Positions 1,899 to 35,961 of a stretch of DNA of 64,000 nt are shown here, piece after piece. Each line of letters begins with the position of its first letter. Position 1 is the first letter of the stretch. The DNA is taken from NCBI GenBank assembly GCA_038997355.1, contig JAWBAC010000001.1:4820-68819 (forward strand), in the 5' to 3' direction. A program made the position numbers and the translations under genes. Source of the stretch: Candidatus Aenigmatarchaeota archaeon. Lineage in GTDB: Archaea > Aenigmatarchaeota > Aenigmatarchaeia > CG10238-14 > SpSt-28. The notes under the pieces were generated by a model. It did no database searches. It worked only from the letters and a program-made list of their open reading frames with translations, and was not told the DNA's origin.

Positions 1899-3215
1899 AT
1901 GACTTCTATAGTTTTTGCCTTTGAAGTTCATCAACCCTTTAGATTAAGAGAAAGAGTCAACGAAAATTCCAACAATTTAATAGAAAGATATTTTGATATA
2001 GAATTGAACAAATTTTATTTAGATAGAATTTCTGAAAAATGTTATTTAAAAGCCAATAACATTATTCTAGATTTAATAGATGCGTTTAAAAAGCAAAAGA
2101 AAAAATTCAAGGTTGCATATTCTATTAGTGGAATATTTCTAGAAGCATTAGAAAAGTATAGAAGAGATGTTTTAGAAAGTTTTAGAGAATTAGCAAAGAA
2201 AAAAGAAGTAGAAATATTGTGCGAAACTTATTATCATTCGATCGTTTCTTTGCATTATGATTATGATGAATTTATTAAGCAAGTAGAGATGCAAAGAGAA
2301 ACTTTACATTCATTGTTAAATGTAAAACCAAAAGTTTTTGTAAATACTGAAATGATATTTAACAATAAAATTGCGAAAATAGCTGAAGATTTAGGTTTCA
2401 AAGCAATATATACCGAAGGAGTTGAAAGAATTTTGAAATGGAAAAGTCCAAATTATGTATATGTTAGAAAGTATGCATTTCCTAACGATCCTATTCCTAA
2501 AAAAAGAATAAAAATTTTGCTAAGAAATTATAGATTAAGTGATGATATTGCATTCAGATTTTCTGCAAGAAATTGGGATCAGTGGCCGCTAACTGCTGAT
2601 AAATATGCTTCTTGGTTAGCAGCAACTCCTGGAGATGTAATAAACATTTTTATAGATTATGAAACTTTTGGAGAGCATCATTGGGAAGAAAGTGGAATAT
2701 TTTGGTTCTTAAAAGCATTACCATATTATGTTTTGAAGTATGAGCACTTAGAGTTTGATCTACCAAGCGAAGTAATTAAGAAATATAATATTGTTGGAGA
2801 ATATGACGTTTTTGAATTGTCTTCCATATCTTGGGCAGATAGCGATAAAGATGTTAGCGCTTGGTTAGGTAATGAAATGCAATTAAGAAGTTTTGAAGAA
2901 GTTATGAATTTAAGAAATAAAGTTTTAGAAACGAATGATGCTGAACTATATAAAATTTGGCAATTATTTACTCAAAGCGACATTTATTATTATATGTGTA
3001 AAAAATCACAAGCAGATCAAGATGTTCATCAATATTTCAATCATTATAGAAGCGCTGAAAAAGCTTTTGTGAGTTTTATGAACATATTAGCAGATTTTAA
3101 AGCTCAACTAGAAATAAGAAAGATAAAGCAATCACTGAAAGAAATCTTAGCAAGTAAAAATATAATAGAAAATTTAGAAAAAGAATTAGATATTAAAGTT
3201 TATGAAAAGATTTGA
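1899..3215 (+). CDS. glycoside hydrolase family 57 protein (alpha-amylase/4-alpha-glucanotransferase-like)
   Basis: N-terminal FAFEVHQPFRL motif typical of GH57 (HQP motif). 438 aa. Confidence 0.6.
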   Translation: MTSIVFAFEVHQPFRLRERVNENSNNLIERYFDIELNKFYLDRISEKCYLKANNIILDLIDAFKKQKKKFKVAYSISGIFLEALEKYRRDVLESFRELAKKKEVEILCETYYHSIVSLHYDYDEFIKQVEMQRETLHSLLNVKPKVFVNTEMIFNNKIAKIAEDLGFKAIYTEGVERILKWKSPNYVYVRKYAFPNDPIPKKRIKILLRNYRLSDDIAFRFSARNWDQWPLTADKYASWLAATPGDVINIFIDYETFGEHHWEESGIFWFLKALPYYVLKYEHLEFDLPSEVIKKYNIVGEYDVFELSSISWADSDKDVSAWLGNEMQLRSFEEVMNLRNKVLETNDAELYKIWQLFTQSDIYYYMCKKSQADQDVHQYFNHYRSAEKAFVSFMNILADFKAQLEIRKIKQSLKEILASKNIIENLEKELDIKVYEKI

Positions 3216-3630
3216 AATTCTAGAATATCCGACCGCAGATACAGGATTTGTTGCATATGGAAAGAATTTAGAAGAATTATTTGAAAACGCAGCTATAGCT
3301 ACGTATAGCATAATGGTAAATTTAGAAAAAGTAGAACCAAAAATAAAAAGAGAAATAAGAATTGAAGCAATAGATTTATATCAATTGATGTTTAAGTGGA
3401 TTAATGAATTGCTCTATTTTTTAGATACAGAGATTTTGGTTTTTAGTAAGTTTAAAGTGAAAATCGAAGAGAAAGATGGAAAATATTTTTTGTTTGCTGA
3501 AGTTTTTGGAGAGAAAGTAGATAAAAGTAAGCATGATTTAGGTACATTAGTTAAGGCATGTAGCTATCATAACATGGAAATTAAAAAAGAAAATGATATT
3601 TGGATTGCAAAAGTTATAGTAGATATATGA
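3202..3630 (+). CDS. archease (RtcB ligase activator)
   Basis: 142 aa. EYPTADTGFVAYGKNLEELFENAA matches the archease HTAD/TADxG signature. Adjacent to RtcB. Confidence 0.8.
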   Translation: MKRFEILEYPTADTGFVAYGKNLEELFENAAIATYSIMVNLEKVEPKIKREIRIEAIDLYQLMFKWINELLYFLDTEILVFSKFKVKIEEKDGKYFLFAEVFGEKVDKSKHDLGTLVKACSYHNMEIKKENDIWIAKVIVDI

Positions 3631-3697: not shown

Positions 3698-3755
3698 AGA
3701 TAAATTAATTCTATAAATTTTTCCTATAAAGAAAAATTATAGAATTAATTTATCT
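3698..3755. terminator. long near-perfect palindrome (19-nt perfect arms plus inner extension) between convergent genes
   Basis: agataaattaattctataa (3698-3716) is the exact reverse complement of ttatagaattaatttatct (3737-3755). Inner tttttc/gaaaaa extends the stem. T-rich tract upstream. Likely a bidirectional terminator hairpin. Confidence 0.5.
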
Positions 3756-4324
3756 AAGAAATGATTAATTATTGCGATAGATGTTGAAGTTAAATAAGGT
3801 ATTGAACCTAAACTTATTTTTCTTGCATTAAACTCTCTAATGATAAATTTTTCAACTTTCTTAGGCAAACCTATATGATCTCCAACTATAAAACAATTAT
3901 TTTCGCTTAAATACTCTTTTTCCAAATTTTCTCCTTTTTCATGCAAAACAAAGAAATTAGGATTATACTTTTGCTTTATAAATCTTAAGAGAGGTATTAA
4001 ATCTAATTCGTAAAAATTAAAACCTTCATCCAATTGAACTCTTTTGTAATATTTTTCTAAGTTTTGTCTTATTTTTTCAGCAAAATGCTTTTCATTAGGT
4101 AAAATTCCTTTAACTCTTTCAGAAATTATTTCTAAAGAAATTGGTTTGTTTGGTTTTCTTAAGATAGCATAAAATATTACATCTTTTCTGTATTCTCTAC
4201 TAATACAAATTGCTTGTATTGCGCTTTGAACAACTATATCAAATCTTCCAAAACGTTCTAGATTTTCGATATCAAGATCGTAAGAATTATATGAAGCTCT
4301 ACTAGCTAATACAAATATCCTCAT
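3737..4324 (-). CDS. SPOUT-family methyltransferase, TrmY-like (tRNA pseudouridine54 N1-methyltransferase family, COG1901)
   Basis: 195 aa. Size and C-terminal CFIVGDHIGLPKK resemble the SPOUT knot/SAM-binding region. Sits between archease and RtcB. Confidence 0.45.
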   Translation of the reverse strand: MRIFVLASRASYNSYDLDIENLERFGRFDIVVQSAIQAICISREYRKDVIFYAILRKPNKPISLEIISERVKGILPNEKHFAEKIRQNLEKYYKRVQLDEGFNFYELDLIPLLRFIKQKYNPNFFVLHEKGENLEKEYLSENNCFIVGDHIGLPKKVEKFIIREFNARKISLGSIPYLTSTSIAIINHFLDKLIL

Positions 4325-5775
4325 TAACCCTTTACAACAGCAATAGGTCTCATTCTAACAACAATTTTGCTTATTCCGGCTCTCTCTGTTGTTAAAACAA
4401 CTTCATCAACATTTTTATATGCTTCTGGCAATTCTTCTATAACACCTTCTTTTGTTGTTGATTTTATTAATATACCTTTTGATTCTATTAGCTTAACTGC
4501 ATCTTGATATCTATATTTTCTCATCATTGCAGCTCTTGATGCAACTCTTCCACTACCATGAGCTGAAGAATAAAATGTTTTTTCTGCTGTCTCAACGCCA
4601 ACTAAAATATAGCTTGCGGTTCCCATACTTCCAGGAATTAATACTGGCTGGCCAATTTTTTCATAAGCTTTTGGTATGTATGGACTGTATGGCGGATATG
4701 CTCTAGTTGCTCCTTTTCTATGAACTAATAATTTTTTCTTTTCACCATCTACTTTATGTTCTTCTAATTTTGCCATGTTATGATGAATATCGTAAACAAT
4801 TTGTAAACCAATTTCTTCTAAGGGCATTTTCAAAACTCTAACAAAACTCTCTCTTATCCAATGAGTTATCATTTGTCTATTTGCAAAAGCATAATTAGCT
4901 GCTGAAAACATAGCTCCAAGATATCTTTCAAAAACTTTTGTTCCACTTGGAGCATATGCTAATTGTCTGTCTGGCAATTTCCTTATTAAATCTCTAAACT
5001 CTCTTTCTATTATTTCTAAATAATCGCTTGCAACTTGATGACCTAAACCTCTTGAACCAGTATGAATCATAACAACTATTTGACCTTCTCTTTCTATTCC
5101 CAAAACTTTAGCTATTTCTCTATCAAAAATTCTATCAACAACTTGAATTTCTAAGAAATGATTCCCAGAACCCAAAGTTCCTAATTGCGGCATACCTCTT
5201 TCTATTGCTTTTTGAGAAACATATTCTGGATTTGCATTTTCTTCCTCGCAACCATTATCTTCTATAAATTCTAAATCTTTTTCAGTTCCATATCCATTTT
5301 CTACTGCCCATTTTGCACCATATTTTAATACTTCATATGTTTGACTAGCAGAAAGTTTTACTAATCCTTCGCTACCTACACCAGCTGGAACAGATCTAAA
5401 TATTTCATTTACTAAATCATAGAGTTTATCTTTTATTTGTTCGTAAGTTAAATTTGTTCTTAAAACTCTTACTCCACAACCTATATCAAAACCAATACCT
5501 CCAGGACTTACGCAACCATTATAATAATCTATTCCAGCTATTCCTCCAACTGGGAATCCATATCCAAAATGCATGTCTGGCATAGCAATGGAATATCTTT
5601 GAATTCCAGGCAATGTAGCAACATTAATGGCTTGCTCTATTGCACCGTCTTCAACTTCTTGCAATAATTTTTCAGATAAGAACAATCTTACAGGAACATT
5701 CATATTTGGTTTTACTCCTTTCTCTATTTCCCATTCATAATCACTAATTTTTTTAACCTTAGATTTCCAACTCAT
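4324..5775 (-). CDS. rtcB: RNA-splicing ligase RtcB (3'-phosphate/5'-hydroxyl RNA ligase)
   Basis: 483 aa. Conserved RtcB blocks (GFDIGCGVRV, HxGSRGLGHQ, NHFLEIQ) and size. Confidence 0.9.
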   Translation of the reverse strand: MSWKSKVKKISDYEWEIEKGVKPNMNVPVRLFLSEKLLQEVEDGAIEQAINVATLPGIQRYSIAMPDMHFGYGFPVGGIAGIDYYNGCVSPGGIGFDIGCGVRVLRTNLTYEQIKDKLYDLVNEIFRSVPAGVGSEGLVKLSASQTYEVLKYGAKWAVENGYGTEKDLEFIEDNGCEEENANPEYVSQKAIERGMPQLGTLGSGNHFLEIQVVDRIFDREIAKVLGIEREGQIVVMIHTGSRGLGHQVASDYLEIIEREFRDLIRKLPDRQLAYAPSGTKVFERYLGAMFSAANYAFANRQMITHWIRESFVRVLKMPLEEIGLQIVYDIHHNMAKLEEHKVDGEKKKLLVHRKGATRAYPPYSPYIPKAYEKIGQPVLIPGSMGTASYILVGVETAEKTFYSSAHGSGRVASRAAMMRKYRYQDAVKLIESKGILIKSTTKEGVIEELPEAYKNVDEVVLTTERAGISKIVVRMRPIAVVKG

Positions 5776-5861: not shown

Positions 5862-7556
5862 TTAAGGTAGTTCTATTCTTTTTTCTCTAACTCCTACTTT
5901 TCTCGCTATTAATACTACTAGCAATACTAATAAAGCTATTAATAGTACTATTACTGTTGCAATTACTAATGTTTCTAATATCTTGCCTAAGTTTACATCT
6001 ATTCTTAGTGGTTTTGGTTTTTCCCTAACATTAAATTCAAAATGCTCTTCTACTTCTCCTACTTTAATTTTTACTTTTGTTGCTGATTTTTCAAAATCTT
6101 CGCTTACAAACAAAGATAACTTTACTACTTTTGTTTGTAATGGCAATATGTTTATGCTAGATGTTTCTAAAGAGCTTAATACTCCTCTTTCTGTTTCTAC
6201 AGATATAGGTAATTTTTCAAAGGCTTTTATATCGCTGTTTTTAACTGTTATGTATATATCATTCCACTCTCCCTTATTTAATTCTCTTTTATCTACTGAA
6301 ACTTTTAATACTTGTATATGTGTTGCTCTTTCTATATAGAAATCATACTTAATACTTACTAAATTATTAAATGCAAATACCGTTGCTAATTTTCTTTCCC
6401 CTTGTTCGACATTCATTACATTAAAGTATACAAATTTTACTTCGTTTGGTAAAATAGCTGGAATTATCTTAATTTGCACTTCTTCTCCTATAACAAACAT
6501 CACTGTTACATTATACAATCCTACATCTCCACAATTTCTTAAAAATACATTTACTCTTCCTTCTTCTATGATTCTATTTTCTACTTTTTCAAAATCTAGA
6601 CAATAGTTAAAGCTTAAACCTTCTATTTCGTATGAACTAAAAGATGGAATGTACTTTACTGAATTGCTTATTCCATACATCGTTAGTAATAATCTTGCTA
6701 CTTGATCAAAATTTACTAAGTTTCCTATATTTAATACATTAAGATTTGAATTGCCGTTAATATCGCTGTTATTATTACTTATTTGATTTGTGTTGTTGAA
6801 ATAAACCTGTGTTAATAAATCTATTAATAATGATAGTTTGTTTATGATTTCATTGGTGTTATTGAAGTATATATAATTCGTATTATTCAAATTGATTTGT
6901 GTTAGTAAATCGATTATTGGTAATATTGTGTTAATAATTTCGTTAACATTTATGTTTGTATTATTTAAGTTGTTAATTAAGTTTAGCAAATTATTTAGAT
7001 TTGCTACTAAACTTACTTCGTTAATGTTACTATTGTTGTTATTGATGTTTATCTGATTGTTATTTGTAATGTTATTCAATAGATTTATTATTGAAAGCAC
7101 ATCTATTGGTGTAACTTTTTGTTCTGATGTTGGACAATTCCAGGTTATTTTAATTCTTTGACTTTCTATTGTAGGATCGCTAGTTACTACATATGTTACT
7201 TTTGCATAATATTCGTTGGTAACTGGACATGTGTTGCTAGTTACAAAAGTAAAGCAGAAGAATTGTTCACTTCCTTGATTTGTGCATTCTTTAATTTTAT
7301 TATTGTTCTCAAAAATTTCTATCTTAGTTACTCTTACTCTATTTATATCGTTAAACTTTGCTATAGCTACTAATAATACTTGCTCGTCTTTTATTGCTTG
7401 GGTCTTACTTGCTAAAAGTTCTACACTATCTGCTAAAGCTAGATTGCTACCTAACATAAGTATTCCTGCTGCTATTAGTATTATTAGTAAAGTATTTAGC
7501 CTCATAATGTTATTTATGTAAAAAGTATATAAATACTTTTTGGTGGTAACAATCAT
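5862..7556 (-). CDS. Asn-rich repeat-containing cell-surface protein (signal peptide, C-terminal TM anchor)
   Basis: 564 aa. N-terminal hydrophobic signal, C-terminal TM plus basic tail (LVVLIARKVGVREK). Central region has degenerate repeats (...IIDLLTQ...NNTN...) and Asn-rich low complexity. The underlying DNA shows degenerate tandem repeats. Confidence 0.5.
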   Translation of the reverse strand: MIVTTKKYLYTFYINNIMRLNTLLIILIAAGILMLGSNLALADSVELLASKTQAIKDEQVLLVAIAKFNDINRVRVTKIEIFENNNKIKECTNQGSEQFFCFTFVTSNTCPVTNEYYAKVTYVVTSDPTIESQRIKITWNCPTSEQKVTPIDVLSIINLLNNITNNNQININNNNSNINEVSLVANLNNLLNLINNLNNTNINVNEIINTILPIIDLLTQINLNNTNYIYFNNTNEIINKLSLLIDLLTQVYFNNTNQISNNNSDINGNSNLNVLNIGNLVNFDQVARLLLTMYGISNSVKYIPSFSSYEIEGLSFNYCLDFEKVENRIIEEGRVNVFLRNCGDVGLYNVTVMFVIGEEVQIKIIPAILPNEVKFVYFNVMNVEQGERKLATVFAFNNLVSIKYDFYIERATHIQVLKVSVDKRELNKGEWNDIYITVKNSDIKAFEKLPISVETERGVLSSLETSSINILPLQTKVVKLSLFVSEDFEKSATKVKIKVGEVEEHFEFNVREKPKPLRIDVNLGKILETLVIATVIVLLIALLVLLVVLIARKVGVREKRIELP

Positions 7557-9769: not shown

Positions 9770-9870
9770 TGCCGGGGGTGGGATTTGAACCCACGACCTC
9801 CGCGTTTCTATCATCAATATCAAAGCTCATTTGATATGAGCGCGGCGTTCTGCCGCTAAACTACCCCGGC
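9770..9870 (-). tRNA. tRNA-Met elongator (anticodon CAT) with ~29-nt intron. Could alternatively be tRNA-Ile2 (CAU)
   Basis: Reverse complement: GCCGGGG acceptor, anticodon stem CCGCG/CGCGG, loop CTCATA|intron|A. Intron ATGAG pairs with exon CTCAT (bulge-helix-bulge). T-loop TTCAAAT. Confidence 0.8.
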
Positions 9871-15150: not shown

Positions 15151-15248
15151 GGGGCCGTAGTCTAGCCAGGCAGGACGACGGGCTCCAGAAATGGAGCTCT
15201 GATAAATGAGGAAACCCGTTAACCCGGGTTCAAATCCCGGCGGCCCCA
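15151..15248 (+). tRNA. tRNA-Trp (anticodon CCA) with ~25-nt intron
   Basis: GGGGCCG/CGGCCCC acceptor. Anticodon stem ACGGG/CCCGT. Loop CTCCAG|intron AATGGAGCTCTGATAAATGAGGAAA|A. Intron AATGGAG pairs with exon CTCCA. T-loop TTCAAAT. Confidence 0.8.
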
Positions 15249-16119: not shown

Positions 16120-17100
16120 ATGATTGAAATAGATGGAAGTTATTTAGAAGGCGGCGGACAAATATTAAGAACTTCAATAGCTTTATCTTGCATCCTTAAA
16201 AAACCTTTCAGAATTTATAACATTAGAAAAAATAGACCTCAACCTGGATTAAAAGCTCAACACTTAGCAGGTGCAAAGTTTGCAGCTGAATTATTAAATG
16301 CAGAAGCTAGAGGCTTAGAAATTGGTTCTACAGAAGTTACTTTTATTCCAAAAGAAGAAAACATTCCAGATTTTAAAGAAATTAATATTGGAACTGCTGG
16401 AAGTATTTCTTTGTTTTTACAAACAGTTTATCCAATAATTGCATTCTTATCCAATAAAAAAGTTAAGCTAAGAATTATTGGAGGTACTAGCGTATTGCAT
16501 GCACCAACAATAGATTATTTAGATTTAGTTAAGTTCGAAATTTTAAAATTCTTAGGTATAGAAAGACCAAAAATTAATATTATAAGGCATGGATTTTATC
16601 CAAAAGGCAATGGAATAGTAGAAATAGAAATTTACCCGATAAAAAATGTTAAAGGTATCGAATTAATCGAAAGAGGAAAATTTATCAAAAGAATTGCAAG
16701 AATCTCTGCAAACGAAAAAGTTGAAAGAATAAATAGAGAAGTTGAAGTTTTAAAAAAATTAGAAAATACTGAAATTTTTGTTAGAAACGAAAAAACTTTA
16801 AGTCCTGGATTTTCAGTTACTATTGCATCCTACTTCGAAAATTGTGTTTTGGGTGCAGATAGTTTAAACTCTTCTCAAGAAGCAATAGAAAGTTTAAAAA
16901 AATCAGAAAATTCTAATGCATGCTTAGACAAATTTATGGCAGATCAAATTTTAATTTATTTGGCTTTATCTCAAGAGAAATCAATAATTAAAGTTGAAGA
17001 ATTAACCTCGCATACATTAACAAACATTTATACTATCGAAAAATTCTTAGGAAAAATTTTCGAAATTGATGAAAATCAAAAAATAATAAAGAGAATTTAA
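16120..17100 (+). CDS. rtcA: RNA 3'-terminal phosphate cyclase RtcA
   Basis: 326 aa. N-terminal IDGSYLEGGGQILRTSIALS is the RtcA signature. Confidence 0.85.
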   Translation: MIEIDGSYLEGGGQILRTSIALSCILKKPFRIYNIRKNRPQPGLKAQHLAGAKFAAELLNAEARGLEIGSTEVTFIPKEENIPDFKEINIGTAGSISLFLQTVYPIIAFLSNKKVKLRIIGGTSVLHAPTIDYLDLVKFEILKFLGIERPKINIIRHGFYPKGNGIVEIEIYPIKNVKGIELIERGKFIKRIARISANEKVERINREVEVLKKLENTEIFVRNEKTLSPGFSVTIASYFENCVLGADSLNSSQEAIESLKKSENSNACLDKFMADQILIYLALSQEKSIIKVEELTSHTLTNIYTIEKFLGKIFEIDENQKIIKRI

Positions 17101-17102
17101 CT

Positions 17103-17241
17103 CGCCGGGGGTGGGATTTGAACCCACGCGGGCTTATCGCCCACCGGCTTTCTCTTTGATATTTTACTCATCATTACTCAGCTACCCCAGAGCTTATCAT
17201 AACTCGAGGCCGGCGCCCTGGTCCAGCTAGGCGACCCCGGC
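17103..17241 (-). tRNA. tRNA-Ser (anticodon CGA) with ~53-nt intron and long variable arm
   Basis: Reverse complement: GCCGGGG acceptor, 3-bp D stem, anticodon stem CCGGC/GCCGG, loop CTCGAG|intron|A. Variable arm TGGGCGATAAGCCCGCG. T-loop TTCAAAT. Confidence 0.75.
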
Positions 17242-19103: not shown

Positions 19104-20197
19104 TTGTAGCAAAACAAGCATTAACAATTAACGAAAACGAAAGCGTAAAGAATGCAATAAAGTTTATGTTAAAAAATAATGTTAGAGATTTAATAGTTGT
19201 AAACGATAAGAACGAATATAGAGGCATCATAAGGCTAAGAGATTTAATAGCTGAAAAGAATCAAAACGAAAAAATCAAAAAGATTAAAAAAAGAGATTGT
19301 AAAGTTTATGAATTAAATGAACAACAAATTGCTAAAGTCATGCTACAAAACGATTGTTATTTAGCTGCATACTTAGATAAAGACAATAAAGTTCTTGGAA
19401 GCGTAAGCATAGATGATCTATTAGAAATAATTAAAGAAAGGTATGGAAATTTAAAAGTGGAAGAAATAGAATCTCAAAACGTAATAATATTAAACCATAA
19501 CGAAAGCATTTATAAAGCTATTAAAGTAATGGCTGAATATAAAATATCTCACATTCCTATAGTAAAAAATGGAAAACTATACGGAATTGTTTCATCAAAA
19601 GACATTTCAGAATTTTTATTAAAAAATGTAAAAGAGAGAGTAAGTCTTGGCGAGCTAATAGGTAAGAAGTTAAAAATTTTCGAAAATCCAATAGAATCTA
19701 TAGCAACGAAAAAAGTAATTACATATTCTAAAAATGAGAAAATTTCAAATATAATAAAGAAATTTTTATACTATAACATTTCCTGCTTAGTAAAAGAAGA
19801 TCTAAAAGGAATAGTAACCAAAAAAGATTTGTTAAAACTTTTGGTTACTGAAGAAAAATTAGGAATAGATGTTATTGTAAGCGGAATAGAAAATGTTCCA
19901 AGCTATTATAAAGAAAACTTAGATTATTACATTTCTAACTTCTTAAGAATAGCAAAAAAACTTTTTAACTCTGGATTTCTAAAAGTTCATATAGAAAAGC
20001 ATAGAGATATTTACTCGATTCACTTAGTTTTTAGCGATTATAAAAGAACGTATAGAGTTAGTAGAGAAAGAAGAGAGTTTCTAGATGTTTTACAAGAATG
20101 TTTTGATGCATTAAAAGAAAGTGTGCTAGAAGAACATGCAGAAATTTCTAAGAAAATTAGGGCACAAAAAATCTTAGAATATTTAAAAAACTTTTAG
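19100..20197 (+). CDS. CBS domain-containing protein (tandem CBS pairs)
   Basis: 365 aa with repeated CBS-like segments (e.g. ISHIPIVKNGKLYGIVSSKDI). Confidence 0.55.
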   Translation: MIVAKQALTINENESVKNAIKFMLKNNVRDLIVVNDKNEYRGIIRLRDLIAEKNQNEKIKKIKKRDCKVYELNEQQIAKVMLQNDCYLAAYLDKDNKVLGSVSIDDLLEIIKERYGNLKVEEIESQNVIILNHNESIYKAIKVMAEYKISHIPIVKNGKLYGIVSSKDISEFLLKNVKERVSLGELIGKKLKIFENPIESIATKKVITYSKNEKISNIIKKFLYYNISCLVKEDLKGIVTKKDLLKLLVTEEKLGIDVIVSGIENVPSYYKENLDYYISNFLRIAKKLFNSGFLKVHIEKHRDIYSIHLVFSDYKRTYRVSRERREFLDVLQECFDALKESVLEEHAEISKKIRAQKILEYLKNF

Positions 20198-20208
20198 AAT
20201 TAATATTT

Positions 20209-20730
20209 ATGAACAAAACGCAAATAACTGTATTGATTGCATTAGTAATCGCAATAATAAGCTTATTACTGGCTCTAATTCAAAAAGAAGAATTTATAGA
20301 TTTTACAAACTTAATTCAAACAATTCCATCTTTATCTACTTATGGTTATTCTAAAGTTGATAAAGTAGAAGTTTCTTTTTCTCCAGCAGCAATAGCATTA
20401 TATGCAAATTGTTATAGATTAATTGGGTATGTTGAAGATGTTCAAGCAAAATCTGTTTATAATGCTTTAAATAAAATAAGGGATTGGAGACCTAATACGC
20501 ATGATGTAACTATAGATATTTTTAAAGAATTCGGAATAAAAATTATTGATGTTAGAATCGAAAATGTAACAAATAATGCGTACATAGCAAAAATTTTTGT
20601 TATGCAAGGTAATAAAATCAGAGAGTTAGATATAAGACCTAGCGATGGAATTGCTTTAGCATTAAGATACGATGCACCAATTTACATAAGAAATGTATTA
20701 TTAGAAACTAATGGAGAAAAAGTTTGTTAA
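20209..20730 (+). CDS. membrane-anchored bifunctional nuclease (BFN/DUF151) domain protein
   Basis: 173 aa. N-terminal TM. C-terminal RPSDGIALALRYDAPIYI matches the BFN-domain motif (RPSDaiaLAlr..PI). Confidence 0.5.
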   Translation: MNKTQITVLIALVIAIISLLLALIQKEEFIDFTNLIQTIPSLSTYGYSKVDKVEVSFSPAAIALYANCYRLIGYVEDVQAKSVYNALNKIRDWRPNTHDVTIDIFKEFGIKIIDVRIENVTNNAYIAKIFVMQGNKIRELDIRPSDGIALALRYDAPIYIRNVLLETNGEKVC

Positions 20731-22958: not shown

Positions 22959-23693
22959 ATGACCACTAAAAAGGGTGTAAAATTAATATTGGATGTAAAT
23001 TTGTTGGTTGGAGCACTTTATTCAATTACAAAAGATGGAGAAGAGAAAAATGAATTTGAAGAAGGTTTTAATAAAGTAGGATTGTTAAAAGAATTATTCG
23101 AAGAAAAATATGGAGTCCATACAAAAATAATAGTCAGAGAAAGAGATTTAGAAAGAGCATACGAAATTCTAAAAGGAAGTAAAGAATACTCTTCGAAACT
23201 TTCTCAAGAAAAAATTAAAGTTTTGGAAAAGTATCTTTCAAAAAGAAAATTTAGTGGAGATGAGAATGGTTACTCAATTTCTATCAATGGAATAAATATA
23301 TATGTAGTAAGGAGTAATAAAGAAGATAGATACGTAGAAGAGTTATATAAAAAACATCCTGAATACGTAAAAATTGTAGAAGGATTAAAAAAAAATAGGT
23401 ACATAGATGGAGGAGATGTAGATTTAATGAAGTTTGTAATAGCCTTTTCTGCAAAACATAATGGAAAAAATTATTACATCTTATTGACTTTAGATGAACG
23501 AATATTAAAAGAACGTACAAACATTTGTAGAGTATTGAATAAAGAGAATAAGATATTCATTTCAACTCCAGAAAATCTTTTATACTCTTTAAAGATAGAC
23601 AAAGGAGATTATAAAAATTTAGAAGAATCATTAAGATTAAACTCTATAATCTACTTTTTTAACTCCGAAAACAAAAATAAAAAGAATAAATAA
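22959..23693 (+). CDS. hypothetical protein, possible PIN-like fold
   Basis: 244 aa. N-terminal LILDVNLLVGAL and distal LLTLDERI resemble the first and last PIN acidic motifs. Weak. Confidence 0.3.
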   Translation: MTTKKGVKLILDVNLLVGALYSITKDGEEKNEFEEGFNKVGLLKELFEEKYGVHTKIIVRERDLERAYEILKGSKEYSSKLSQEKIKVLEKYLSKRKFSGDENGYSISINGINIYVVRSNKEDRYVEELYKKHPEYVKIVEGLKKNRYIDGGDVDLMKFVIAFSAKHNGKNYYILLTLDERILKERTNICRVLNKENKIFISTPENLLYSLKIDKGDYKNLEESLRLNSIIYFFNSENKNKKNK

Positions 23694-23713
23694 GTAGTAT
23701 TTAATAGAAGTAC

Positions 23714-24604
23714 ATGAGAAAAATTGCATATGATAAACCAATAGATATAAACGAAATAGGAAAATCAACAGCAATCAAAATTTTAAATGATATTCCTGGA
23801 CCAGTTTACGTAGAAGAAAAAGTAGATGGAGAATTACACGATACAATAACTGCCTGTATCGAGAAAAACAAATATCTTCTTATCTGCTTTTTTGGTGAAA
23901 AAATGCTAACTAAAGATGTTCACATACTAACTTATAAAATTCCTGCTAAAAGATTAGTTTTTGATATAGCTATCTTTTCTGAGAATTTAGATAATCCCTA
24001 TTATCTTAAACCAGAAAAAGCCGCTTTACTTACATTTTTAACTGGACAAAAGTTTGTTCCAATAGATAAAAAATTCAACAGCGGAAAAGAAGTTTCGATA
24101 GAAATTTTGGAAGTTCTTCTATATATGAACTCTAATTTCGAAACCTTTATAAATCCAAAACTCTTTGAAAAAAATAAAGAAACATTTAACAAACTTTTTA
24201 ACGAAGCTTATAATAATAGAGAAGGTATTGTAATTAAAGTCTATGAAAAACCAGAAAAGCCAATATTTATAAAATATGTTAGAGACGAGTTTGAAGAAGC
24301 AAAAAGAATATTCCCTAGAGAAAAATATCCATATCCGTATTTTTATTCAGAAAACATTATAACTCCTTACGACTATGAAAAATTTGTAAAGTATTGGAAA
24401 AATATATTTAAAACTTTAGGTATCTATGAAGAAGCTACAAAAATAGCTGAAAAATTGGGAGGCATGAAAAAAATTTACGAACAGTATCTAGAGAATTATA
24501 ACTTAGAAGAAGTGGAAGAAATTTTTTCTAATTTAAATCCTGAAATAAAAAATTTGCTTGACAAAATACTAAATAAGATTTTTAATAAAATAGAAAAATT
24601 ATAA
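23714..24604 (+). CDS. covalent nucleotidyltransferase superfamily protein (ATP-dependent RNA/DNA ligase-like), uncharacterised small family
   Basis: 296 aa. Motif I VEEKVDGEL (KxDG). Motif III LVFDIAIF. Motif IV REGIVIKV (EGhhhK). Motif V IFIKYVR. Spacing matches the ligase/capping-enzyme NTase domain. Helical C-terminus. Confidence 0.5.
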   Translation: MRKIAYDKPIDINEIGKSTAIKILNDIPGPVYVEEKVDGELHDTITACIEKNKYLLICFFGEKMLTKDVHILTYKIPAKRLVFDIAIFSENLDNPYYLKPEKAALLTFLTGQKFVPIDKKFNSGKEVSIEILEVLLYMNSNFETFINPKLFEKNKETFNKLFNEAYNNREGIVIKVYEKPEKPIFIKYVRDEFEEAKRIFPREKYPYPYFYSENIITPYDYEKFVKYWKNIFKTLGIYEEATKIAEKLGGMKKIYEQYLENYNLEEVEEIFSNLNPEIKNLLDKILNKIFNKIEKL

Positions 24605-25310: not shown

Positions 25311-25880
25311 ATGATAATTTTAGGTGTTTGTGGTTATGCAGCTAGTGGCAAATCAGAAGTTTCTAATTATTTAAAAGAAAAGTATAATTTTGAAGTATTT
25401 GAATTTTCAGATATAATAGAAGAAGAAGCAAAAAAATTAGGATTAATTTCAGAGAATTTAAATCTTGAAGAGAAAAAGAGAAAGTTAAGTGAAGTAGGAA
25501 AAATAATAAGAGAAAAATTTGGTAGAAAAGATATATTTGCAATAAAAATAATTGAAAAAATAAAAGAAAAGAATTTAGAAAAAGTTGTTGTTAGTGGAAT
25601 AAGAAGCTTAGATGAATATTTTGCATTCAAAAACGCTTTTGGAAAAAACTTTTATTTAATTTTTTTAGATGTTGATGCAAAAATAAGATATGAAAGAAGA
25701 AAACTTCAAGATAAGAGTTTTAATTTAAGTTTTGAAGAATTTTTAGAAAGAGATAAAAGAGATGAAAAAGAATTAAACCTTAAAGAATTAAAAGACTTAT
25801 CAGATTTCATTATAGAAAATAATTCTAGCTTAGAAGATTTGTATAAAAAAATCGATTTAATAATTTCTTCTCTAATTTAA
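25311..25880 (+). CDS. P-loop nucleotide kinase, UPF0200/dephospho-CoA-kinase-like family
   Basis: 189 aa. MIILGVCGYAASGKSEVSNYL is a Walker A motif. Overall pattern matches archaeal UPF0200 proteins. Confidence 0.5.
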   Translation: MIILGVCGYAASGKSEVSNYLKEKYNFEVFEFSDIIEEEAKKLGLISENLNLEEKKRKLSEVGKIIREKFGRKDIFAIKIIEKIKEKNLEKVVVSGIRSLDEYFAFKNAFGKNFYLIFLDVDAKIRYERRKLQDKSFNLSFEEFLERDKRDEKELNLKELKDLSDFIIENNSSLEDLYKKIDLIISSLI

Positions 25881-26852: not shown

Positions 26853-27392
26853 TTAATAATTATCAAATTTTAATCTTAATTTTTCTGAACTCATCGAATC
26901 TTCTTTGAATAGTAATCTAAATAGATAACCTCTTTCCAACATATTTAATTCTTTTTTAATTTCTTTCTTATCTTCATCTACTATTATTTTTAAATATATT
27001 CCTTTCTCTAGAGCAGAATATAAAGGTTTGAAACTTCTTTTTAATTCTTTGTTAAAGTATTCTGCTTCTTCCGGAGAAAGTCTTTCTTCATTTATTATTT
27101 CAGATAAAGATATCAAAGTTTTCGCAGTTTTTTCTATTACTTTATCAACGTCGATATACTTCTTAACACATAATATACCGACATAAAAATTACAATTGTT
27201 TTCCTTACCTACACAATAAATTAGTTTGTTGAAATTTAATTCCGCAAATTCTGACTTATAAACAGCTTCGGATGAATACACTAATTTAACATTTCCAAAT
27301 TTCTCTTTTAATTCCGATGTTAATATCTCTTCTAACTTATTGGAATTATCTAGATTGTATATTTTTTCTGTTAATTCTTTTATATCTATCAT
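26853..27392 (-). CDS. hypothetical protein
   Basis: 179-aa ORF, first gene of a three-gene minus-strand cluster. No motif recognised. Confidence 0.3.
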   Translation of the reverse strand: MIDIKELTEKIYNLDNSNKLEEILTSELKEKFGNVKLVYSSEAVYKSEFAELNFNKLIYCVGKENNCNFYVGILCVKKYIDVDKVIEKTAKTLISLSEIINEERLSPEEAEYFNKELKRSFKPLYSALEKGIYLKIIVDEDKKEIKKELNMLERGYLFRLLFKEDSMSSEKLRLKFDNY

Positions 27393-27493: not shown

Positions 27494-27593
27494 AGCCGGG
27501 GCCGGGATTCGAACCCGGGATCTGCGGGTTTCTATCGATCATTTTTCACAAAACCCTGCAGCCCGCCGCGTGAAGCCACTCCGCCACCCCGGC
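27494..27593 (-). tRNA. tRNA-Cys (anticodon GCA) with ~26-nt intron
   Basis: Reverse complement: GCCGGGG acceptor. Anticodon stem GCGGG/CCCGC. Loop CTGCAG|intron|A. T-loop TTCGAAT. Discriminator U73 typical of tRNA-Cys. Confidence 0.8.
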
Positions 27594-35822: not shown

Positions 35823-35961
35823 CGCCGGGGGTGGGATTTGAACCCACGCGGGCTTATCGCCCAGCGGATTTCTTTCTCTTTTACTTTTTGCATCATTAAA
35901 TCAGCTTCACGCCAATCTATCACTCAAGTCCGCCGCCCTGGGCCAGCTAGGCGACCCCGGC
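35823..35961 (-). tRNA. tRNA-Ser (anticodon TGA) with ~53-nt intron and long variable arm
   Basis: Near-identical exons to the 17103..17241 gene. Anticodon stem GCGGA/TCCGC. Loop CTTGAG|intron|A. Variable arm TGGGCGATAAGCCCGCG. Confidence 0.75.

Follow-up and report, generated by a model that had tools for sequence, protein, structure and literature searches.

We analysed a 64,000-nt stretch of DNA (the window) from the Aenigmatarchaeota contig JAWBAC010000001.1, in which two adjacent open reading frames (ORFs), here called ORF-A and ORF-B, pair a PIN-fold protein with a small protein of the RNA ligase superfamily. Both folds are clear, the catalytic residues are conserved, and so is the operon. 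The novelty lies in the ligase clade: it is distinct and very small, has neither motif Ia nor any of the known accessory domains, and in Aenigmatarchaeota is fixed in one operon with a PIN_3-like nuclease. The RNA ligase superfamily itself is already known and the PIN-ligase theme has precedent. We favour a housekeeping role in which the pair would trim RNA and then join or circularise it, and we put the probability of this reading at about one half. An earlier note on this DNA (the original prediction) had described two co-directional genes with a 20-nt spacer, and its coordinates and lengths for both, as well as the shared direction and the spacing, proved exact. All coordinates refer to the window, and L-numbers (L001 etc.) denote the loci of relatives.

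The ligase-like protein ORF-B

When 1.84 billion representative proteins were searched exhaustively with HMMER, 13 relatives of ORF-B came up. We took the family count from this search, as a word-indexed homolog search found very few of them. All relatives with a source name belong to Aenigmatarchaeota, and two carry the automatic name 'RNA ligase family protein'. A scan of genome contigs gave nothing beyond one relative that was already known, and viral contigs searched with P0013 gave no match. ORF-B itself reached the Pfam family PF09414 (RNA_ligase) with 17.8 bits (E 0.0038), below the gathering cut-off of 27 bits. PF09414 is nevertheless matched by 12 of the 14 family members (best E 6.3e-11), and the relatives at L025 and L029 score 44-45 bits.

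Searches of NCBIfam, PADLOC and PHROGs yielded no meaningful match for ORF-A or ORF-B, and PDB sequence searches with the single proteins and five profiles found no ligase or PIN protein at a useful E-value; two short stretches of Rnl3 (8uce) came up with an E-value of 0.23. The sole PDB ligase reached by the ORF-B family profile was PpaRnl, aligned at YVEEKVDG, EGIVMK and VKYV.

The AlphaFold2 (AF2) model of ORF-B has the nucleotidyltransferase (NTase) fold of RNA ligases, with a predicted local distance difference test score (pLDDT) of 93 and a predicted template modelling score (pTM) of 0.91. Its best Foldseek matches were T4 Rnl2, an Aquifex ligase and the Rnl3 enzymes Pab1020 and PpaRnl, each with a probability of 1.00 and over about 160 residues, while DNA ligases scored clearly lower. 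In the model, a lead of about 30 aa with one helix precedes the NTase domain. The protein was expected to be minimal and to lack an OB domain, and indeed helices make up the whole of residues 191-296. No OB domain with motif VI comes after the NTase domain, which sets ORF-B apart from DNA ligases. For these 106 C-terminal residues no match among solved structures was found. The idea that an acidic C-terminal domain docks onto the basic PIN partner was dropped, since the isoelectric point (pI) of this domain runs from 4.8 to 9.9 over the family.

Four peptides had been proposed as a nucleotidyltransferase motif set, and all of them are found in ORF-B: KVDGE (K36), FDIAIF (83-88), EGIVIK (170-175) and IFIKYVR (184-190). 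They are not chance matches, given the conservation of their residues in 14 homologs, the modelled RNA-ligase-type fold and the PF09414 matches in the family. In the alignment of 14 family members, E35-K36-x-D38-G39, E62, D84, E170-G171, K175 and K187-x-V189 were invariant or nearly so. Every one of the 13 homologs with an N-terminus keeps K36, D38 and G39, and with them the lysine of the KxDG motif.

The motifs stand in the expected order and with a spacing like that of T4 Rnl2, although one label had to be changed. The sequence of T4 Rnl2 was taken from GenBank X69459, in which the published catalytic positions were confirmed (K35, E99, F119/D120, E204/K209, K225/K227); no alignment underlies the residue equivalences, which were drawn from the pattern of the motifs and their spacing. 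Judged by the motif residues and by their spacing, FFGE (59-62) is the true motif III and FDIAIF, proposed as motif III, is motif IIIa. The distances are 22 aa in ORF-B and 21 aa in T4 Rnl2 from motif III to IIIa, 86 and 84 aa from IIIa to IV, and 17 and 21 aa from IV to V. In MthRnl, the glutamate before the motif I lysine contacts the N6 of adenine (motif I is E95/E96/K97). Since this glutamate is conserved in ORF-B, ATP is probably the favoured nucleotide. By profile as well as by fold, the searches assign ORF-B to the covalent nucleotidyltransferase fold, nearest to RNA ligases, and on its motifs and model we regard it as a divergent member of that known superfamily.

Comparison with known RNA ligase families

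RNA ligases are classed into Rnl1-6 by their accessory domains, and ORF-B fits none of these families so defined. The Rnl3 enzymes (Pab1020, MthRnl, PpaRnl) have the same EEKxDG motif I, EGIVxK motif IV and single-lysine K-Y-V motif V, and they share the genomic link to a PIN-like nuclease. The EEK and K-Y-V signatures point to an Rnl3 ancestry of ORF-B. However, Rnl3 has an N-terminal domain, a dimerisation domain and a Pab1020-type C-terminal domain, all of which ORF-B lacks, and with about 380 aa it is larger than ORF-B (296 aa). ORF-B matches neither TIGR01209 nor PF18330, and NCBIfam gave no match for it at E-values up to 1. Rnl3 also has a motif Ia loop and an asparagine five residues after the motif I lysine (K+5), and ORF-B has neither. 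The partners differ as well: that of ORF-B is PIN_3-like and encoded in a co-directional operon, whereas that of Rnl3 is the PIN_5 protein HARP, usually encoded divergently.

T4 Rnl2 and TbREL1 follow the same plan as ORF-B, an NTase domain and then an all-helical C-terminal domain, and their motifs III to V, IIIa included, are spaced almost alike. Yet there is no detectable sequence similarity between T4 Rnl2 and the ORF-B family (hhalign of the family profile against the single sequence, probability 0.3%). Motifs I and III are 64 aa apart in T4 Rnl2, with motif Ia and the F65/F66 region between them; in ORF-B they are 26 aa apart and that region is missing. Motif V is K-x-K in Rnl2 and K-x-V in ORF-B. 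ORF-B has neither the homologous C-terminal helical domain nor the K-x-K motif V by which Rnl2 is recognised. Rnl5 (NgrRnl, DraRnl) has an N-terminal OB-like domain and no C-terminal domain, as opposed to the lead of about 30 aa and the 106-aa C-terminal domain of ORF-B.

The PIN-fold protein ORF-A

On its own, ORF-A has no sequence match in Pfam, NCBIfam or PDB. Eight homologs were gathered from the genes upstream of the ligase relatives, and three of these eight match PF13470 (PIN_3, cut-off 27 bits) weakly, with a best E-value of 4.6e-5; ORF-A of the window does not match it. The relative at L029 scores 24 bits. The PIN proteins fall into a close and a distant clade, which are homologous to each other (hhalign 90%, E 1.6e-6). 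ORF-A has the alpha/beta/alpha fold of PIN domains, and L11, D12, D150, D153, T177, D179, K184 and K198 are invariant in the eight homologs. Of the invariant aspartates, three correspond to acidic positions 1, 3 and 4 of VapC-type PIN domains, and one is extra. The glutamate usual at the second position (E61 in ORF-A) is kept in the close clade only. The family is basic throughout, with a pI of 8.9-9.6 in the eight proteins.

ORF-A resembles VapC and PIN_3 toxins in its PIN fold, in the LD-x-N motif of its N-terminal strand and in the D(P)xD ... LT-x-D motifs of its C-terminal part. It differs from them by about 70-100 extra residues inside the core, and this insertion varies in length among the homologs. 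VapC is encoded with a VapB antitoxin, whereas ORF-A has a ligase partner, no VapB gene and a conserved housekeeping location on the chromosome. No small DNA-binding antitoxin gene adjoins it, and the ligase is its sole conserved neighbour. ORF-A does not qualify as a HARP protein either, the criteria being a PIN_5 (PF08745) match, HARP as the closest fold and an oligomeric assembly.

The homolog search returned the database entry of ORF-B itself, an identical hypothetical protein from a MAG of Candidatus Aenigmatarchaeota and hence of a DPANN archaeon, but no entry 100% identical to ORF-A. ORF-A may therefore be uncalled, or given another start, in the deposited metagenome-assembled genome (MAG).

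Conservation of the gene pair

In about 10 of the 14 lineages that are informative, the ligase gene has a PIN gene directly 5' of it, so the pairing seen in the window recurs in most of the other ligase-bearing lineages. The gap between the two genes measures 1 nt at L015, 3 nt at L016, 14 nt at L002-L007, 19 nt at L001 and 32 nt at L020, and they overlap by 10 nt at L014, 23 nt at L008/L009 and 34 nt at L011. At L022-L024, too, the PIN homolog is immediately 5' of the ligase. The PIN reading frame of L027 is split over two frames, by a frameshift or an assembly error, and the 1.4-kb contig of L021 starts with a PIN-like C-terminal tail. The pairing holds over loci of 22-46% G+C and down to ligase identities of about 25-30%. 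Apart from the PIN partner, no neighbour is conserved across the loci.

In the closest relatives, whose ligases are 35-48% identical to ORF-B, the order Dph2, pair, adenylate kinase (adk), NMP-kinase-like gene (NMP, nucleoside monophosphate) is kept as well. Such retained chromosomal synteny argues for vertical inheritance of the pair in Aenigmatarchaeota. At L015, the pair sits between the genes of ribosomal proteins L32e and L6.

A similar partnership has been described in archaea, where PIN_5/HARP co-occurs and co-localises with Rnl3 (PMC12153264). The ideas put forward for HARP-Rnl3 were trimming and circularisation of C/D-box small RNAs (sRNAs), a toxin-antitoxin relation, or 5'-adenylation (PMC12153264). 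Matelska et al. reported the same PIN_5-ligase link and also a conflict system of PIN_3 and an ATP-grasp ligase (PMC5499597). The main text of the HARP survey mentions neither Aenigmatarchaeota nor DPANN (PMC12153264). HARP-Rnl3 and our pair have in common a PIN-superfamily nuclease linked in archaea to a covalent-NTase RNA ligase, and for both a logic of nuclease trimming and then ligation or circularisation is proposed. They differ in that ORF-B is not an Rnl3 by domain architecture and that our pair is a tight tandem operon. The cut-and-rejoin theme in other archaea is so far predicted from genomes only.

Proposed function and alternatives

What the two enzymes do, which RNA ends they make and use, what their substrates are and whether they form a physical complex is inferred from these features as follows. 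ORF-A and ORF-B may form a two-gene, co-translated RNA cut-and-join module. ORF-A would cut RNA as a divalent-metal-dependent endoribonuclease with D12, D150, D153 and D179 in its acidic site, and its products would be expected to carry a 5'-phosphate and a 3'-hydroxyl, as with other PIN nucleases that depend on metal. ORF-B would be an ATP-dependent RNA ligase, in which K36 attacks ATP to give ligase-AMP. The AMP would pass to the 5'-phosphate end, yielding 5'-adenylylated RNA (AppRNA), and attack of the 3'-hydroxyl on AppRNA would seal the break. Since the ends predicted for the PIN protein are those that an ATP-dependent ligase needs, neither an end-healing kinase nor a phosphatase would be required. 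The P-loop kinase gene downstream was considered as a polynucleotide kinase of the module and dropped, because its synteny does not extend beyond close relatives and L008, L011 and L015 lack it.

The likeliest role would be the maturation of stable small RNAs by trimming and then circularisation or re-joining. Rnl3 circularises or re-joins C/D-box sRNAs. The route of the pair would run parallel to the EndA/RtcB pathway, which the window encodes as well; RtcB joins 2',3'-cyclic-phosphate or 3'-phosphate ends to 5'-hydroxyl ends. Retention of the pair in very small DPANN genomes beside RtcB, archease and RtcA suggests a need, in these genomes, for both of two RNA-joining pathways that differ in their chemistry. 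The structural side of the original prediction is supported, with one motif relabelled, and none of the outcomes that it had named as refuting it was seen. For a nuclease-plus-ligase pair it had offered RNA repair, editing or toxin repair. That functional idea stays a matter of inference, and the synteny favours a housekeeping RNA-processing module over a mobile toxin-repair cassette.

The points that weigh against our reading concern both the chemistry and the genomic context. The ends assigned to ORF-A are assumed from general knowledge, namely from what metal-dependent PIN nucleases are generally taken to leave. In ORF-B, no motif Ia is recognisable, as the 20-26 residues between motifs I and III hold no conserved Arg, Lys or Thr in 13 sequences, and the Asn at K+5 is absent in the whole family. 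Motif Ia (Thr-Arg in MthRnl, R55 in T4 Rnl2) has been called conserved in all ATP-dependent RNA ligases, and the work on MthRnl found it important for sealing. With both elements absent, sealing by ORF-B could be weak or partner-dependent. Taken further, and speculatively, the loss of motif Ia may mean that the two proteins are subunits of an obligate, protein-only enzyme, in which the PIN nuclease would excise or trim specific RNAs and the ligase would seal only with the PIN protein bound and would re-join or circularise 5'-phosphate/3'-hydroxyl RNA. Rnl4, which needs Hen1, offers an analogy for such partner-dependent sealing, but we hold this version to be unlikely. The missing motif would also suit a ligase that is mainly an RNA 5'-adenylyltransferase, making AppRNA as a cap-like mark, or a non-sealing NTase, with the PIN protein removing or creating modified ends: in MthRnl motif Ia is needed for efficient phosphodiester formation, PpaRnl (Rnl3) adenylates strongly and ligates poorly, and 5'-adenylation has been raised for HARP-Rnl3 (PMC12153264). 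We think this very improbable, since the residues of motifs III, IIIa and IV relevant to the third step are all conserved and the idea has no in vivo precedent.

As for the context, a PIN gene does not adjoin the ligase at L010, L013, L012/L025/L026 and L030, which represent three or four lineages. At L025 (10-9708) and L012 (835-5849), in a lineage of about 50% G+C, the unpaired ligase lies in a cluster with Orc1/Cdc6, RadA, ThyX, dCMP deaminase and RPA-like genes. This suggests that the sub-clade has a role connected with DNA. L029 (887-5109), a distant relative of the module, has a beta-CASP RNase gene upstream on the opposite strand, a PIN_3-like 243-aa gene, an antisense 162-aa ORF that parts the PIN-like from the ligase gene, a short 199-aa PF09414 ligase without the C-terminal domain and, just 3' of it, a LigD-type primase-polymerase gene. 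An intein-containing ribonucleotide reductase gene is directly 5' of the pair at L008 (515-6783) and L027 (10-5762). At L015, about 2.4 kb separate the pair from a stand-alone LigD_N (3'-phosphoesterase) gene (1367-1738) and a DUF763 gene on its upstream side, and in the window the pair is flanked by adk and the NMP-kinase-like gene. These neighbours would suit a ligase that seals nicks with a 3'-ribonucleotide at DNA or RNA-DNA junctions, as in Rnl5/DraRnl or LigD-type repair, with the PIN protein as a flap or 5' nuclease in replication or repair. We find such a role quite unlikely. ORF-B has no OB or other DNA-clamping domain and is closer to RNA than to DNA ligases in the fold search, ORF-A groups with VapC-type RNases and not with FEN-type PIN-like nucleases, the loci with a DNA context are mostly those without a PIN partner, and the neighbours vary from locus to locus. 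The tight two-gene operon and its narrow and patchy distribution could also be read as a conflict cassette, in which a VapC-like ORF-A cuts tRNA or rRNA and the ligase reseals it as an antidote, or as anti-virus defence. Neutralisation of a nuclease by a ligase is an idea put forward for PIN_3/ATP-grasp systems and also weighed for HARP-Rnl3 (PMC5499597, PMC12153264). This reading is doubtful: synteny with relatives indicates vertical descent and not mobility, there is no VapB-type DNA-binding antitoxin, no PADLOC match, no viral-contig match and no defence-island neighbour, and the pair is retained in reduced DPANN genomes.

As a strict operon, the pair offers a compact two-protein system that makes the cooperation of a PIN nuclease and an RNA ligase, an idea raised from the genome statistics of HARP-Rnl3, directly testable. 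The clade keeps the catalytic core, with a C-terminal domain of its own and without motif Ia, and so tests the minimal needs for sealing. Should the obligate complex prove true, it would define a seventh RNA ligase family and a second archaeal route of RNA splicing or circularisation that needs neither EndA nor RtcB, and experiments on the partnership predicted for PIN proteins and ligases (HARP-Rnl3) would have their first tractable model. The construction of sequencing libraries is a practical use for small thermostable or unusual RNA ligases.

Locus and neighbouring genes

The features of the locus are collected in Table 1. The window has a G+C content of about 26%. The 5' neighbour of ORF-A is a divergent diphthamide synthase gene (dph2). 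At the other end, a convergent adk overlaps the 3' end of ORF-B by 6 nt and lies between it and the P-loop kinase gene, which had been placed about 0.7 kb downstream and is there. RtcB, archease and RtcA genes, likewise predicted, are all present in the window.

Table 1. Features of the PIN-ligase locus and related genes (window coordinates)
Feature	Position	Strand	Description
ORF-A	22959..23693	+	244 aa, pI 9.2; PIN-fold, VapC/PIN_3-like putative metal-dependent endoribonuclease
LILDVN, first PIN strand	22983..23000	+	invariant L11, D12
Inserted region, about aa 75-145	23181..23393	+	helices 83-99, 119-132, 135-144; beta-hairpin 104-117 (AF2 model); boundaries estimated
IDGGD	23403..23417	+	invariant D150, D153 at helix start; 'DPxD' motif in distant clade
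LLTLD, last PIN acidic motif	23481..23495	+	invariant T177, D179
ORF-B	23714..24604	+	296 aa; predicted covalent nucleotidyltransferase, RNA-ligase clade; short N-terminal lead, NTase domain, helical C-terminal domain
Motif I, EEKVDG	23813..23830	+	K36, predicted AMP-accepting lysine; EE-K form is Rnl3-type signature
Motif III, FFGE (E62)	23888..23899	+	E62 nearly invariant; parallels T4 Rnl2 VFGE (E99)
Motif IIIa, VFDI (F83, D84)	23957..23968	+	earlier labelled motif III; compare T4 Rnl2 F119-D120 in VFDI
Motif IV, EGIVIK (E170, G171, K175)	24221..24238	+	invariant; aligns to PpaRnl EGIVMK
Motif V, IKYV	24269..24280	+	K187, V189 invariant; V189 replaces second lysine; aligns to PpaRnl VKYV (motif V Lys238)
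C-terminal all-helical domain, aa 191-296	24284..24601	+	invariant F193, E194, R202, Y227, Y255, Y258
P-loop NMP-kinase-like gene	25311..25880		starts 706 nt downstream of ORF-B; AAA_18 match; PRK08356 79 bits, under its cut-off
RtcB	4324..5775	-	
Archease	3202..3630	+	
RtcA	16120..17100	+	

Among the relatives, L012 was considered as a virus on account of its RecA, ThyX, methylase and deaminase genes. This was dropped, as the longer L025 has Orc1/Cdc6 and RPA and no viral match, and the locus was treated as cellular. At L010 (1831-2566; 62% G+C contig), the unpaired ligase homolog P0008 is followed, after about 0.5 kb, by an MNT/HEPN-like pair (NTP_transf_2 and HEPN). In a related MAG (L002, 6639-7238), an mTERF-domain gene is found between CBS-domain and BFN-domain genes; the window has no mTERF gene there, and a mere 11 nt separate its CBS-domain gene from its BFN-domain gene (20197-20209).

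Two ORFs of the window had no Pfam match, one of 564 aa at 5862-7556(-) and one of 179 aa at 26853-27392(-). A putative RNA methyltransferase gene (PF04013) dependent on S-adenosylmethionine, at 3737-4324(-), abuts RtcB. ARAGORN in default mode called seven tRNAs only, one of them as odd. Rfam gave 11 tRNA matches in the window, five of which are 98-139 nt long, at 9770-9870(-), 15151-15248(+), 17103-17241(-), 27494-27593(-) and 35823-35961(-). Their length suggests intron-containing tRNA genes, which would fit the presence of RtcB and archease in the window.

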